The notes under the pieces were generated by a model. It searched no databases. It saw only the letters and a list, made by a program, of their open reading frames with translations, and had not been told where the DNA came from. Shown here piece by piece: positions 31,081 to 37,523 of a stretch of 64,000 bases of DNA (positions are counted from its first letter, which is position 1; each line of letters begins with the position of its first letter). A program made the position numbers and the translations under genes. Where the stretch lies: NCBI RefSeq assembly GCF_051903065.1, contig NZ_CP178438.1. One strand, written 5' to 3'. This DNA comes from Escherichia coli. GTDB taxonomy: Bacteria > Pseudomonadota > Gammaproteobacteria > Enterobacterales > Enterobacteriaceae.

Positions 31081-31462
31081 TACTTCTCCGGTTAGTAAGA
31101 AATCACGGAAGGAATGCTACCACTGCGAATTTAACCACTTACTGACATGGCTCACGATGTCACGTATTGCACCGGGCGCTGAGACTGATGACAAACACAG
31201 CATTGCCTGATGCGCTACGCTTACCAGACCTACCAGATAACTGCAATATATTGAATTTTCGAGATTATGTAGGCCGAATAAGGCTTTATTCCGCATCCGG
31301 CATAAACAATGTGTACTTTGCCACCAATTTGAGCGCCCCTTAAGGCGCTGATATTTTTTTATCCTTCTCGTGCACATTGGGCCGCTTCAGCAATCAGCCG
31401 CACATCAGGTCGCGAAGTTGCCGCGGCGACCAGCCAGCGACATGCAGAGTTGAGTAACGCGA

Positions 31463-32692
31463 TTAATCATGGGAAATTGCCTCTGCATGGGCGAGCAGGT
31501 ATTGCTCCGCCTCACCGGACCAGATCCCCTGATGACGCGCCAGAATCGCCGCCAGTGCTTGATCCTGAATCTGCGTGAGTGACGTCAGCGACAGGTATTT
31601 CCCGGTATACACCAGCTTTTTGCCGCCGCCGACGGCAGGCAATTCAAGCGTGGTTTCGCCCGCGGCATTCAGCCCAAGAATATGTGTTACCACTTTTGCG
31701 GCCTGCACTTTTTTCTCTTCGATCAGTTTGACCGCCGCGCGCATGTCGTCGGTATTGCCGCCTGACGTGCCCACGTAGTGGGTAAATGCATAATGCACAT
31801 CGTAGAAATTAATTGGCGCGCTGAAATGTTTATCCTGCGGTCCGGCGAAGAAATTCAGGCAACCATCTGTCGCCAGCAAGGAAGAGGCGAGAGTCACCAG
31901 TCCTTCATTAGGCACAAAGACGAAAATATCATCGAAGCCGTGACCGCCACTCAGCGCCATTAGCGTATCAAATGCTGCATCGGTGGCATTGAGATAATGA
32001 ATCAGTGTTTGCGGTTCTGATGGATAGTGCTTGCGCGCATAACTCAATTTATCGTTGTCGGTATCGGTAATGACGAGCAGCGACGGGTTAACGGGTCCAT
32101 GTAGCGCATAATCAATCGCCAACAGTCCCATTGGTCCGGTGCCGCCGAGGATCAGCGTGCGCCCTTGCGGGCGAATCCCCATCGTGTGGTTATAACTACC
32201 TTCCTGAAGATGATAGTTGGCGTTGAACGCGCCAATCACGCAGGAAAGCGGTTCAACCAGCGAGCCTTCAAAGTAGGTTTCGCCTTCGTATGCCAGCAGG
32301 CAATCTTGTTCCATAACCTCATTTGGGATAACCACATGTGTGGCTTCACCACCCACCCACGGGAAGGAGTAGCCGGGGCAGTCCGGGCGGTCGGGGAGTT
32401 GCAGGTTGGCCTGAATCACATAACGCTGACCCGGCTGGAATTTGTGCTGCCACTTTTTACCCACGGCCAGAATATCGCCGCAAAACTCGTGGCCGATGAT
32501 GATTGGGTTGGTCGCCACATCGTCGGGTACTTTTTTATGGTTTTCACCCAGGTTGGCCTCTTTCCAGGAAGAGAGGCACAGGCTGTCAGTGACCACCGTC
32601 GCGAGGATTTCATCCTCCTGCATTTCAGGAAGGTCAAAGGTTTCCAGGCGTAAATCACGTTTACCATAAAGACGCAGAGCTGTTGTTTTCAT
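31463..32692 (-). CDS. sorE: L-sorbose-1-phosphate reductase (zinc-dependent MDR dehydrogenase)
   Basis: About 410 aa with MDR-family zinc-binding motif GHEFCGDILAVG; last gene of a sorCDFBAME-ordered cluster. Start chosen at MKTTALRLYG. Confidence 0.8.
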   Translation of the reverse strand: MKTTALRLYGKRDLRLETFDLPEMQEDEILATVVTDSLCLSSWKEANLGENHKKVPDDVATNPIIIGHEFCGDILAVGKKWQHKFQPGQRYVIQANLQLPDRPDCPGYSFPWVGGEATHVVIPNEVMEQDCLLAYEGETYFEGSLVEPLSCVIGAFNANYHLQEGSYNHTMGIRPQGRTLILGGTGPMGLLAIDYALHGPVNPSLLVITDTDNDKLSYARKHYPSEPQTLIHYLNATDAAFDTLMALSGGHGFDDIFVFVPNEGLVTLASSLLATDGCLNFFAGPQDKHFSAPINFYDVHYAFTHYVGTSGGNTDDMRAAVKLIEEKKVQAAKVVTHILGLNAAGETTLELPAVGGGKKLVYTGKYLSLTSLTQIQDQALAAILARHQGIWSGEAEQYLLAHAEAISHD

Positions 32693-32743
32693 AAACCACC
32701 TCATGTTGAGCGATGGCCCCGGCAGTCGTGCCGGGGCGAAGAA

Positions 32744-33568
32744 TCAGGACAGGAAGCCCAGCGCATTGCCGATAATCCCTAAGCCAAACAGGGCGAAAAT
32801 CAGCCATACCGGGTTAATTTTTTTGTTGAGCAGACGAACCATTAGTAGCGTCAGACCGAGCGCCAGCAAACCAGGGCAAAGTTGATCGAGAATGTTCTGC
32901 ACGGTCATGGTGACGGTGGAGCCATCAGCGGCATGCGTTTGTGAAACCACCAACGGTACGTTGATTGACGTCCATTTGGTGACCAGCACGCCCATCACAA
33001 ACAGTCCGAGAATCGACGCGCCTTCGGTGAGTTTTTGCAGCACATTCCCGCCCATATCGCTGACGATATTCACCCCTTTGCGAAAGCCGAGCTGTAGGCC
33101 ATACCACTTCATCGCCAGACGCACCGCGTTGAAAATAAAGAAGAACAGCCGCGGGCCGAGAATGTTGCCCGAAAGTGCCAGAGATGCGCCGAGCGCGGCG
33201 GTAATCGTGCGCAGCGTTCCCCAGACCAGTGGATCGCCAACCCCTGCCAACGGTCCCATCAGACCGACTTTGATGCCGTTAATGGTACCGTCATCAATTT
33301 CCGCGCCGTTGGCCCGCGCCTCTTCCATGGCGGCAGTGACGCCGATGACCGGGCCACATACGGCTGGCGTGGTATTGAAGAACACCAGGTGTCGCCTGAG
33401 CGCCGCAACCTGATCCTCTTTTAATGGGTAAAGTCGCTTGATGGCGGGGATCATGTCGTAGCAAAAACCCAGCCCGTGAATACGTTCAAAGTTAAAGGAC
33501 GCCTGTTGCAGGTTGGAGCGCAGAAACATGCTCACCAGATCGCCGCGTGTAATTTTTCTCTGTTCCAT
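32744..33568 (-). CDS. sorM: PTS sorbose-specific EIID component (mannose family)
   Basis: About 274 aa; MEQRKITRGDLVSMFLRSNLQQASFNFERIHGLGF is typical of ManZ-type IID proteins. Start could instead be the upstream Met at 33598. Confidence 0.8.
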   Translation of the reverse strand: MEQRKITRGDLVSMFLRSNLQQASFNFERIHGLGFCYDMIPAIKRLYPLKEDQVAALRRHLVFFNTTPAVCGPVIGVTAAMEEARANGAEIDDGTINGIKVGLMGPLAGVGDPLVWGTLRTITAALGASLALSGNILGPRLFFFIFNAVRLAMKWYGLQLGFRKGVNIVSDMGGNVLQKLTEGASILGLFVMGVLVTKWTSINVPLVVSQTHAADGSTVTMTVQNILDQLCPGLLALGLTLLMVRLLNKKINPVWLIFALFGLGIIGNALGFLS

Positions 33569-36159: not shown

Positions 36160-36228
36160 AACAGACTCCTGATTTTAGATAATAGGGACCCGCCGTAATT
36201 TTTATTACGGTAAACATCGGGAAGATTT

Positions 36229-37176
36229 TTATTTCAGTAATAGTTCAGCTGTGCTGCTATTCGTTACCAGACAATTAATATATTTTCCACGCAGTGCACC
36301 AATAATTCCGCTGTATTTTTCTTCACTCATGGCAATGCCAATGGAATATCGTGCCTGCTTTAATTTATTCATTTCGATAGAGAGTGTTTTTTCGCTCATA
36401 TTCGTTTCAACCATTGCGCCGTGAATATCAAAAAAGCGCGAGCAAATATCGCCAGCAACCTGGCGGGCATTCAGGTCGTCACTCTCTTCACCACCATAAA
36501 ACGCATGCCAGTTAGCGCCGTCGCGAATGGCCGGTGAGCCAATTCCCACCAGGGCGACATCCAGATTATCCCAGTAGGCAGAGATGGTTTTAAAGTGCTG
36601 AGACTGCATGATCCCATTACGAATTAATGGGTTATCCAGTAGAGCCGGAAAATCCGCGAGGTGCGATTCCCCTTTCAGCTTCGCTGCCGCGCTGTAGGTT
36701 AATGTGTTTACGTGATAGCGGCTTTCGAGTTTACCGGACGGTCCGCCAATAATTGGTACGCAGATTAACTGCCGCGATTGCCCCGCCTGCGGCAAGTTTT
36801 CAACCAGTGCGCTCACCGCGCGACCCCAGGAAAAACCGACAATATCGCCAGGCTCCAGCAAGCGATCCAGCAGTTGCGCGCCGTGTAACCCCATCATCGC
36901 CAGTTGAGTCTCTTCATCCTCATCATTTCCCGACACCACCACAACGTCTTTCAGGCCAAACTTTTGCTTCAGTTGCTGCTCCAGCCAGAGATTTTCGTTG
37001 TAGTCATAGTTGATGGCGATGGTGACAATTCCCTGATCGCGGCCTCGTTTAAGCAAGCGGCTGATGGTGGTGCGGTAAATACCCAGTTCGCGCGCGATTT
37101 GCGCCTGCGTCATATCCTGTTCGTAATAGAGTTGGGCAATCTTCACAATCAAACGGATATCGTCACTGTTTTCCAT
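36229..37176 (-). CDS. sorC: SorC-family transcriptional regulator of the sorbose operon
   Basis: About 315 aa from MENSDDIRLIVKIAQLYYEQDMTQAQIARELGIYRTTISRLL (HTH) plus sugar-binding domain; first gene of the cluster. Start chosen at the internal Met rather than the ORF-track Met at 37260. Confidence 0.8.
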   Translation of the reverse strand: MENSDDIRLIVKIAQLYYEQDMTQAQIARELGIYRTTISRLLKRGRDQGIVTIAINYDYNENLWLEQQLKQKFGLKDVVVVSGNDEDEETQLAMMGLHGAQLLDRLLEPGDIVGFSWGRAVSALVENLPQAGQSRQLICVPIIGGPSGKLESRYHVNTLTYSAAAKLKGESHLADFPALLDNPLIRNGIMQSQHFKTISAYWDNLDVALVGIGSPAIRDGANWHAFYGGEESDDLNARQVAGDICSRFFDIHGAMVETNMSEKTLSIEMNKLKQARYSIGIAMSEEKYSGIIGALRGKYINCLVTNSSTAELLLK

Positions 37177-37523
37177 TGCCGCCTCCTGGTTCTGCACATT
37201 TGTGCAAATACGCTTTCTCACCGCTTGATCTGATATAACCCCATCATGATGGCCTTTCAAAGCGATTTTTCACTCTTTGCATGGGGAGAAATAGCGCTTT
37301 CTCTTGCACATTTGTTTCTCTGCGCAGTAGTCATCAGCACAGGTGTGCGGAGATTCGTAATAGGTTGATTATCCTTATTTTGCCAGGCAAATTTGCATTG
37401 TACTTCCGGAGACACTTTTGTGATAAAAGGCGTGGCAGATCACATTTAATTTCGACGTTGCCGCATAACCCTGTTTTTCCCCGCTAAGAGGTACGGTATA
37501 TTCCGCGTTTTACAGGAGAATTT

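Follow-up and report, generated by a model that had tools for sequence, protein, structure and literature searches.

The window analysed here, a stretch of 64,000 nucleotides from Escherichia coli (contig NZ_CP178438.1), carries between pepE and rluF seven co-oriented minus-strand open reading frames (ORFs), all of full length, which almost certainly represent the chromosomal L-sorbose operon of E. coli, sorCDFBAME, intact, at its canonical locus and long resident there rather than inserted. Both the system and its chromosomal position are already published, so that it is a known and not a new system, as had been said in a sequence-only reading of the window. That reading had recognized a seven-gene L-sorbose phosphotransferase system (PTS) and listed its families as a SorC-type regulator, a short-chain dehydrogenase/reductase (SDR), IIA, IIB, IIC and IID components and a zinc-dependent reductase; profile searches agree with the whole list, and orthology to the genes of Klebsiella pneumoniae and of E. 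coli CFT073 confirms the operon. Its description of the operon as inserted between pepE and rluF does not stand, since synteny across genera shows the operon to be ancestral at this site. As an accessory catabolic trait the sor operon is already known; it confers a competitive advantage when sorbose is present, and recent work has put it forward as a marker that is enriched in extraintestinal and high-risk lineages of E. coli. Its confirmation in the window adds no new function; the added value is modest and evolutionary, and consists of a corrected polarity, a deletion scar of the gene sdhL with an adjoining repeat element, a reassigned start at the sorA/sorM boundary and the question of where the empty allele of this site originated.

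Gene content and identity of the sor operon

The starts of the sor genes were taken from RefSeq NZ_AP045789.1 (strain 23CRST027), a record with 100% identity to the window across the block and with the same feature coordinates throughout the 50 kb compared (Table 1). The seven genes were delimited from the ORF list of the window, and a Shine-Dalgarno-like sequence is found upstream of every one of the seven ATG codons. From sorC to sorE the genes are spaced by 69, 9, -1, 65, 10 and 51 nt. The tight spacing that had been remarked upon is therefore real at sorF and sorB, where stop and start share one nucleotide (TGATG), but not at sorA and sorM, which had been said to overlap; that overlap was a product of the longest ORF, beginning at TTG 33598 with no Shine-Dalgarno sequence, whereas the ATG at 33568 has one, is the start from which the orthologues align, and leaves a gap of 10 nt. 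Antisense ORFs within the sor genes were judged spurious, and so was an 86-aa ORF (31117-31377) that spans the repeat pair and the sdhL scar of the pepE-proximal spacer.

The K. pneumoniae operon reportedly has the order sorCDFBAME, in work that is attributed to Sprenger and Lengeler (1984) and Wohrl et al. (1990). The K. pneumoniae fragment compared here (L093) agrees with the window in all seven genes and in their order, with products of 315, 267, 135, 164, 266, 274 and 410 aa, which bears out the earlier statement that order and sizes are those of the Klebsiella operon. Identity to these products ranges from 71 to 95% (SorC 87.3%, SorD 87.0%, SorF 71.1%, SorB 84.8%, SorA 92.5%, SorM 94.9% and SorE 86.1%). 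SorC is identical at 274 of 315 residues (87%, 612 bits) to the K. pneumoniae SorC of structure 2w48, and SorB at 139 of 160 (87%) to the K. pneumoniae IIB-Sor of structure 1nrz, with 305 bits as against 170 bits for the IIB of ManX. The two loci also agree in having rluF upstream of sorC and the metH-yjbB side downstream; they differ in that K. pneumoniae retains sdhL intact as an eighth gene, whose overlap with sorE is 8 nt, and lacks pepE at this place, whereas the window has only a scar of sdhL and a repeat element. The gene order of the window, iclR-metH-yjbB-pepE-sor-rluF, upholds the stated location of sor near metH, and a mapping paper by Wehmeier et al. (1992) is said, by its title, to place sor of E. 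coli in the vicinity of metH and iclR.

Within E. coli the correspondence is closer still. The genes c4981-c4987 of CFT073 are 96.7% identical to the block at the DNA level and 95.6-100% at the protein level; SorB is identical, SorE is 98.8% identical, SorF differs at 6 residues and SorA at 10. The sor block of O157:H7 is 98.8% identical at the nucleotide level. The sor loci of CFT073, of enteroaggregative E. coli (EAEC) 042, of sequence type (ST) 131 and of O157:H7 share with the window the locus, the junctions, the sdhL scar and the repeat element, and differ from it by allelic substitutions only. A cloned CFT073 fragment carrying c4981-c4987 gave strain DH5alpha growth on L-sorbose (PMC2831201), and the published cloning primers map to window positions 31433 and ~37522. 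In EAEC 042 the genes, written 'sorEMABFDC' (Ec042-4384..4390), lie beside rluF and the strain uses sorbose, whereas MG1655 does not (PMC2808357). The operon has further been described as sorbose-induced, with knock-out and knock-in strains tested in ST131, ST648 and ST10 (PMC12817954).

Several points weigh against the assignment as worded above. SorA scores 345 bits against E. coli ManY and SorM 365 bits against ManZ, the 'mannose IID' subfamily model NF008315 is above its cut-off, and for IIC and IID components the profile libraries cannot discriminate between sorbose and mannose as substrate. Some lineages, such as Shigella, are Sor-negative in spite of retained sor DNA (PMC2831201), and intact ORFs are therefore no guarantee of growth on sorbose. 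The promoter and the operators of the block are putative, drawn from conservation alone, and a sigma-70-like site at 37426-37397, although the sole match upstream of sorC, was rejected as promoter as it is not conserved outside E. coli. Lastly, sequence comparison indicates that no extant Escherichia sor-positive allele could have given rise to the K-12 allele of the site by simple deletion.

The first of these points, together with the generic NCBIfam names ('mannose/fructose/sorbose'), could be taken to mean that the block encodes a PTS for another substrate of the mannose family (mannose, fructose or N-acetylgalactosamine) and that 'sor' is only an annotation habit, a notion to which hardly any credence can be given. 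E. coli ManXYZ belongs to a common PTS family with SorA, SorM and SorB, yet ManX is a fused IIAB of ~323 aa where the sor IIA and IIB are separate, and manXYZ lies at another locus and is without SorC, SorD and SorE, whereas here the transporter genes are nested between sorD and sorE as in the characterised operon. A better match to aga or man paralogues, which had been named as an outcome that would overturn the assignment, was not obtained with the equivalog models: the ManX model NF011670 gives 64 and 211 bits against a cut-off of 400, and all of the AgaF/V/W/E and AgaB/C/D models are far under their cut-offs (for example AgaW 148 against 300 and AgaE 160 against 500). The scores of SorB favour IIB-Sor over ManX, the nearly identical CFT073 fragment confers L-sorbose growth, and assays of L-sorbose uptake and phosphorylation have already been done for orthologues. 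What carries the sor assignment is the operon in its entirety, with IIB, SorC and SorE, and not IIC and IID on their own.

The Sor-negative lineages bear on another question, namely whether the operon is present but cryptic in the source strain through a regulatory or missense defect, as in Shigella. Pseudogenised sor genes occur elsewhere in Escherichia, and the residue differences of SorF and SorA from CFT073 could be read in the same direction. Set against this are the seven full-length ORFs with Shine-Dalgarno sequences and catalytic motifs, the intactness of every conserved regulatory block, and the 98-100% identity of the block to that of many other isolates, so that a cryptic operon is considered unlikely and the intact L-sorbose operon is retained. 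The pseudogenised operons are those of the E. albertii type strain (L040) and of L046, in both of which sorE is split, and of L008, in which sorD is disrupted.

The pathway proposed for the block is drawn from established knowledge of the Klebsiella and E. coli sor systems. SorF and SorB are separate IIA and IIB proteins with a histidine at the positions (His9 and His14) which we take to be those of the phosphorylated histidines of the mannose family, and phosphotransfer is thus predicted from the sequence. Phosphoenolpyruvate, through enzyme I and HPr, would phosphorylate SorF and then SorB, and SorA and SorM (IIC and IID) would bring in L-sorbose as L-sorbose-1-phosphate. SorE, in which ADH_N and ADH_zinc_N domains are found by profile search, and SorD, with TGGASGIG at residue 15 and YAATK at residue 161 (the TGxxxGxG and YxxxK motifs), are the predicted pathway enzymes by motifs, domains and profile scores. 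SorE would reduce L-sorbose-1-phosphate to D-glucitol-6-phosphate, and SorD would oxidize the latter to D-fructose-6-phosphate, which would then enter glycolysis. The product of the first gene, SorC, would exert negative and positive sorbose-responsive control over a single upstream promoter.

Table 1. Coordinates and properties of the sor locus and its flanks in the window
Feature	Position	Strand	Properties
pepE	30391-31080	minus	
pepE-proximal spacer common with K-12	31081-31170		135/140 identical up to ~31170; left limit of the sor-specific block
REP/BIME	31179-31341		two inverted REPs, ~31203-31233 and ~31266-31306; arms 31174-31195 / 31317-31338
sdhL deletion scar	31359-31470	minus	5' 58 nt (31413-31470) joined out of frame to 3' 54 nt (31359-31412)
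sorE, L-sorbose-1-phosphate reductase	31463-32692	minus	409 aa, MDR (medium-chain dehydrogenase/reductase)/zinc-type; GHE at residue 67, GTGPMG at residue 184
sorM, EIID-Sor	32744-33568	minus	274 aa; TIGR00828 464 bits (cut-off 293)
sorA, EIIC-Sor	33579-34376	minus	265 aa; TIGR00822 424 bits (cut-off 340)
sorB, EIIB-Sor	34442-34936	minus	164 aa; His14 in RLIHGQV
sorF, EIIA-Sor	34936-35343	minus	135 aa; His9 (CAHGK); TIGR00824 148 bits (cut-off 98)
sorD, D-glucitol(sorbitol)-6-phosphate dehydrogenase	35353-36159	minus	268 aa, SDR; NF004817 501 bits (cut-off 304)
sorC, SorC-family regulator	36229-37176	minus	315 aa; N-terminal helix-turn-helix and sugar-binding domain; PF04198 270 bits
sor regulatory region	37177-37488	minus	5 invariant blocks; putative roles
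Perfect palindrome TTGCACAAATGTGCA	37193-37207		just upstream of the sorC Shine-Dalgarno sequence (37182-37187); invariant in alignment
GGTTATATCAGATCA	37226-37240		invariant in alignment
CAAATGTGCAA	37304-37314		invariant in alignment
GCACAnnnGTGC	37337-37348		invariant in alignment
TGTGATC...ACAAAAGTG	37413-37444		invariant in alignment; CRP-half-site-like
rluF-proximal 35 bp common with K-12	37489-37523	plus	82/84 identical from 37489; 33/35 in alignment; right limit of the block
rluF	37524-38396	plus	

Residence at the pepE-rluF site

In K-12 pepE and rluF are adjacent, as had been stated, and stand 211 bp apart. Alignment to K-12, which had been proposed as a check and in which the sor genes are absent, shows that homology stops at ~31161-31170 and restarts at 37489, so that the sor-specific block is ~6.3 kb long and slightly narrower than 31081-37523; K-12 has 86 bp (L002, positions 3091-3176) in its place. 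The block had been called the largest accessory block of the window, and it is in fact the largest of the four window segments that lack a collinear K-12 match, the others being a 284-bp stretch in zraS, IS1397 where yjaA would stand, and the IS1A copy within espL4/arpA. The population frequency of the two alleles was surveyed in 5426 complete E. coli genomes, a genome being counted as sor-positive when it held at least 80% of the block. The block is found in 2865 genomes (~53%), in one copy each, contiguous with both flanks and always at the pepE-rluF site, and the K-12-type site is found in 2557 (~47%) at an identity of at least 99.3%. According to a published survey, more than 86% of genomes carry the operon in each phylogroup but A (9.6%) and B1 (12.1%) (PMC12817954).

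Whether the block was gained or was lost can be addressed by its position in other Enterobacteriaceae, which was determined by scanning for SorE in one genome per species followed by tblastn mapping. The order lysC-yjbD-rluF / sorCDFBAME / (sdhL) / pepE-yjbB is conserved in ~27 loci of at least seven genera, including E. whittamii, Escherichia sp. MOD1, three Pseudocitrobacter, eight Citrobacter, Klebsiella grimontii, K. michiganensis, K. oxytoca, K. spallanzanii, K. indica, Raoultella and other Enterobacteriaceae. The contig of E. albertii spans the pepE side only (sorA to yjbB) and fits this order, and K. pneumoniae has the same arrangement minus pepE, with sor beside rluF. Between Escherichia species, divergence of the sor proteins is similar to that of the core proteins on either side (93-99% identity), and the G+C content of the block is 0.511 as compared with 0.51-0.52 in its flanks.

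The block does not have the features of an integrative genomic island: scans of ORFs, profiles, RNAs and repeats found no integrase, transposase or insertion sequence (IS), tRNA or flanking direct repeat in 31081-37523. The earlier remark that integrase, tRNA and direct repeats are missing at the junctions is therefore correct, although the left spacer does hold a repeat element and a gene remnant. A search of plasmids for sor yielded no genuine copies, only mislabelled chromosomes or large chromosome fragments.

It could nevertheless be argued that the block is a horizontally acquired island, inserted in the lineage of this strain, with K-12 as the ancestral empty site. K-12 and the 2557 genomes of its type are without the block, a 31-bp stretch of the K-12 allele upstream of rluF resembles Citrobacter and Klebsiella (19-22 of 31 positions) more than it does sor-positive E. 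coli (14 of 31), and the sor-rluF-yjbD segment of Pseudocitrobacter resembles its Escherichia counterpart far more closely than pepE and lysC of Pseudocitrobacter do theirs, which implies at least one crossing between genera. Acquisition in this lineage is however very unlikely in view of the shared neighbours in at least seven genera (E. whittamii and, beside rluF, K. pneumoniae included), the fit of E. albertii on the pepE side, the equal divergence and base composition of block and flanks, the lack of mobility genes, flanking repeats and mobilisable plasmid copies, and the prevalence of the operon in every phylogroup except A and B1. The cross-genus synteny, the like divergence, the flank-like G+C content and the missing mobility genes together are the grounds on which the operon is taken to be ancestral here and K-12 to show the derived state. 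Its residence between rluF and pepE/yjbB predates the split of the Escherichia, Citrobacter and Klebsiella lineages. The sor locus is accordingly a conserved, vertically inherited feature of the Enterobacteriaceae, and its absence from phylogroups A and B1 is derived.

The sdhL scar and the regulatory region

The spacer between sorE and pepE is composite. Its pepE-proximal part, which presumably contains the promoter region of pepE, is shared with K-12 and also conserved in Citrobacter, Klebsiella and Salmonella. It is followed by a pair of repetitive extragenic palindromes (REPs) in the manner of a bacterial interspersed mosaic element (BIME), in which the REP pair sits in a long imperfect palindrome (inverted repeat I1) and the REP arms match other REP copies of the window at 18597, 42469, 56462 and 60981. 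A hairpin followed by a T-run at 31332-31349 on the plus strand is terminator-like. The BIME is present in CFT073, E. whittamii and Escherichia sp. MOD1 and absent from ECE313; in E. whittamii and other Escherichia it occurs together with sdhL. The start of the BIME coincides with the left breakpoint of the K-12 allele. Searches against Rfam returned no known RNA family in 31081-37523 at gathering scores, and at a permissive threshold only a chance-level match to ES036 (E = 0.81) in 31081-31470.

Between the BIME and sorE lies the remnant of sdhL, from which, by alignment with the intact gene of ECE313 (L004, positions 1623-2435), 701 bp are missing. The sdhL ATG falls in the last codons of sorE (CATGATTAA), with an overlap of 8 nt, and the scar translates as MINRVTQLCMSLAGRRGNFAT and ...RPDVRLIAEAAQCAREG, each running to a stop codon. 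Intact sdhL is a gene of 271 codons whose product is a shikimate-dehydrogenase-like protein of the SdhL/HI0607 type (378 bits against Haemophilus influenzae HI0607, structure 1npy). The gene, with its 8-nt overlap with sorE, is found in 26 of ~35 enterobacterial loci and also in K. pneumoniae. Among the 5426 E. coli genomes it is intact in 177, including ECE313 and ST648, and the identical scar is collinear in 2685; the two counts together account for approximately all of the sor-positive genomes, and ~94% of sor-positive E. coli thus carry the one 701-bp deletion. The ST648-type allele, sorCDFBAME-sdhL, as seen in ECE313 and ST648, agrees with the window in operon and site and differs in its intact sdhL and, for ECE313, in having no BIME. 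From these comparisons the sor operon appears to have had ancestrally eight genes ending in sdhL, with the window representing the majority E. coli form from which sdhL was lost by deletion.

In ST648 sdhL is sorbose-induced, with a log2 fold change of 6.0 for RNA and 6.8 for protein (PMC12817954 supplement), and it was described there as unique to ST648 (PMC12817954). Given the scar, ST648 has kept an ancestral gene and not gained a new one. From the translational coupling of sorE and sdhL, which overlap, and the induction by sorbose it follows that SdhL probably acts on a sorbose-related ketose or polyol, and not on shikimate. To our knowledge the SdhL/HI0607 class is an orphan one, and we know of no physiological substrate for it; the scar and the retained gene give this class of enzymes a genomic context. 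The combination of an ancestral eight-gene operon, a sorbose-related substrate for SdhL, retention in ST648 and a K-12 empty allele that was maybe imported is offered only tentatively, the chances of all four holding jointly being rather less than even.

On the opposite side of the operon the spacer between sorC and rluF was aligned for 14 sequences from ~7 genera, and the five blocks of Table 1 are invariant in this alignment. Direct and inverted repeats were detected in the region, and the motif TTGCACAWWTG has only two sites in the window, both in the regulatory region, against 0.2 expected. Tetramers of the SorC family bind bipartite operators of palindromic half-sites (PMC11229326), and in light of this architecture the conserved palindromic blocks are plausible, putative SorC operators. 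The conserved TGCACA/TGTGCA palindromes in 37193-37348 are probably the sites at which SorC acts, and the TGTGA-containing block may be a candidate half-site for CRP. Promoter-like and terminator-like signals across the region were no more numerous than in shuffled sequences.

The K-12-type allele and other segments of the window

The K-12-type allele is nearly monomorphic. K-12 and the window are 99-99.5% identical in the pepE and rluF coding DNA that adjoins the junction. In the spacer, the 31 bp of the K-12-type allele at -66 to -36 of rluF (37458-37488 in the window) match Citrobacter at 21-22 of 31 positions, K. grimontii at 19 and the Escherichia sor-positive alleles at 14. The K-12 form of this stretch is strictly tied to the empty site (2558 genomes) and occurs in no sor-positive genome among the E. 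coli surveyed. A further ~46 bp of the K-12 spacer have no match in the sor block, nor in 80 related loci beyond the flanks. A contig whose PepE is 93% identical to that of the window ends before the pepE-rluF spacer could be read from it. A resemblance of the K-12 spacer to the Salmonella sequence at the same position was discarded, its score of 18 being equalled by a shuffle mean of 18.1. Loss of the operon in the lineage of K-12 is supported for the genus as a whole, and the empty allele itself may have been imported or may be a long-standing polymorphism, as opposed to having arisen by recent deletion in situ.

Other states of the site are seen outside E. coli. In Salmonella enterica (L089-L091) the position that sor occupies between pepE and rluF is taken by a gene for a 179-aa DUF2058 protein, a third state of the site, and Citrobacter species have 0.8-9 kb of extra DNA between sdhL and pepE. 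In Pseudocitrobacter (L006, L007 and L070) the sor, sdhL, rluF and yjbD products are 91-98% identical to the proteins of E. coli, as compared with 85-86% for pepE and 90-91% for lysC, and Citrobacter shows the opposite pattern. This distribution of identities suggests that a segment of ~9 kb, sor-sdhL-rluF-yjbD, has been exchanged between genera.

Elsewhere in the window several further differences from K-12 were noted. Next to the sor locus (38289-38488) the stop codons of rluF and yjbD abut in the window (38396/38397), where K-12 has 132 extra bp between the genes, and the 3' end of rluF is only ~88% identical to K-12. A stretch of 284 bp in zraS (1372-1655) has no megablast match to K-12, and the piece that flanks it is 95.6% identical. 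IS1397, of the IS3 family, is located at 12298-13845 between the rrn 5S gene and yjaB, and yjaA, which K-12 and CFT073 have, is missing in the window. An IS1A copy (22003-22770) interrupts espL4/arpA (20464-23426), which bears a pseudogene annotation; K-12 has the gene whole and CFT073 does not have it. Structural RNAs and RNA elements recognized in the window comprise four Rfam matches to naRNA4 (REP325-type) at 18601, 42475, 52147 and 56376, one to STnc430 at 42612-42761, a lysine riboswitch upstream of lysC (40363-40559) and an rrn operon with tRNA-Glu (7281-12290).

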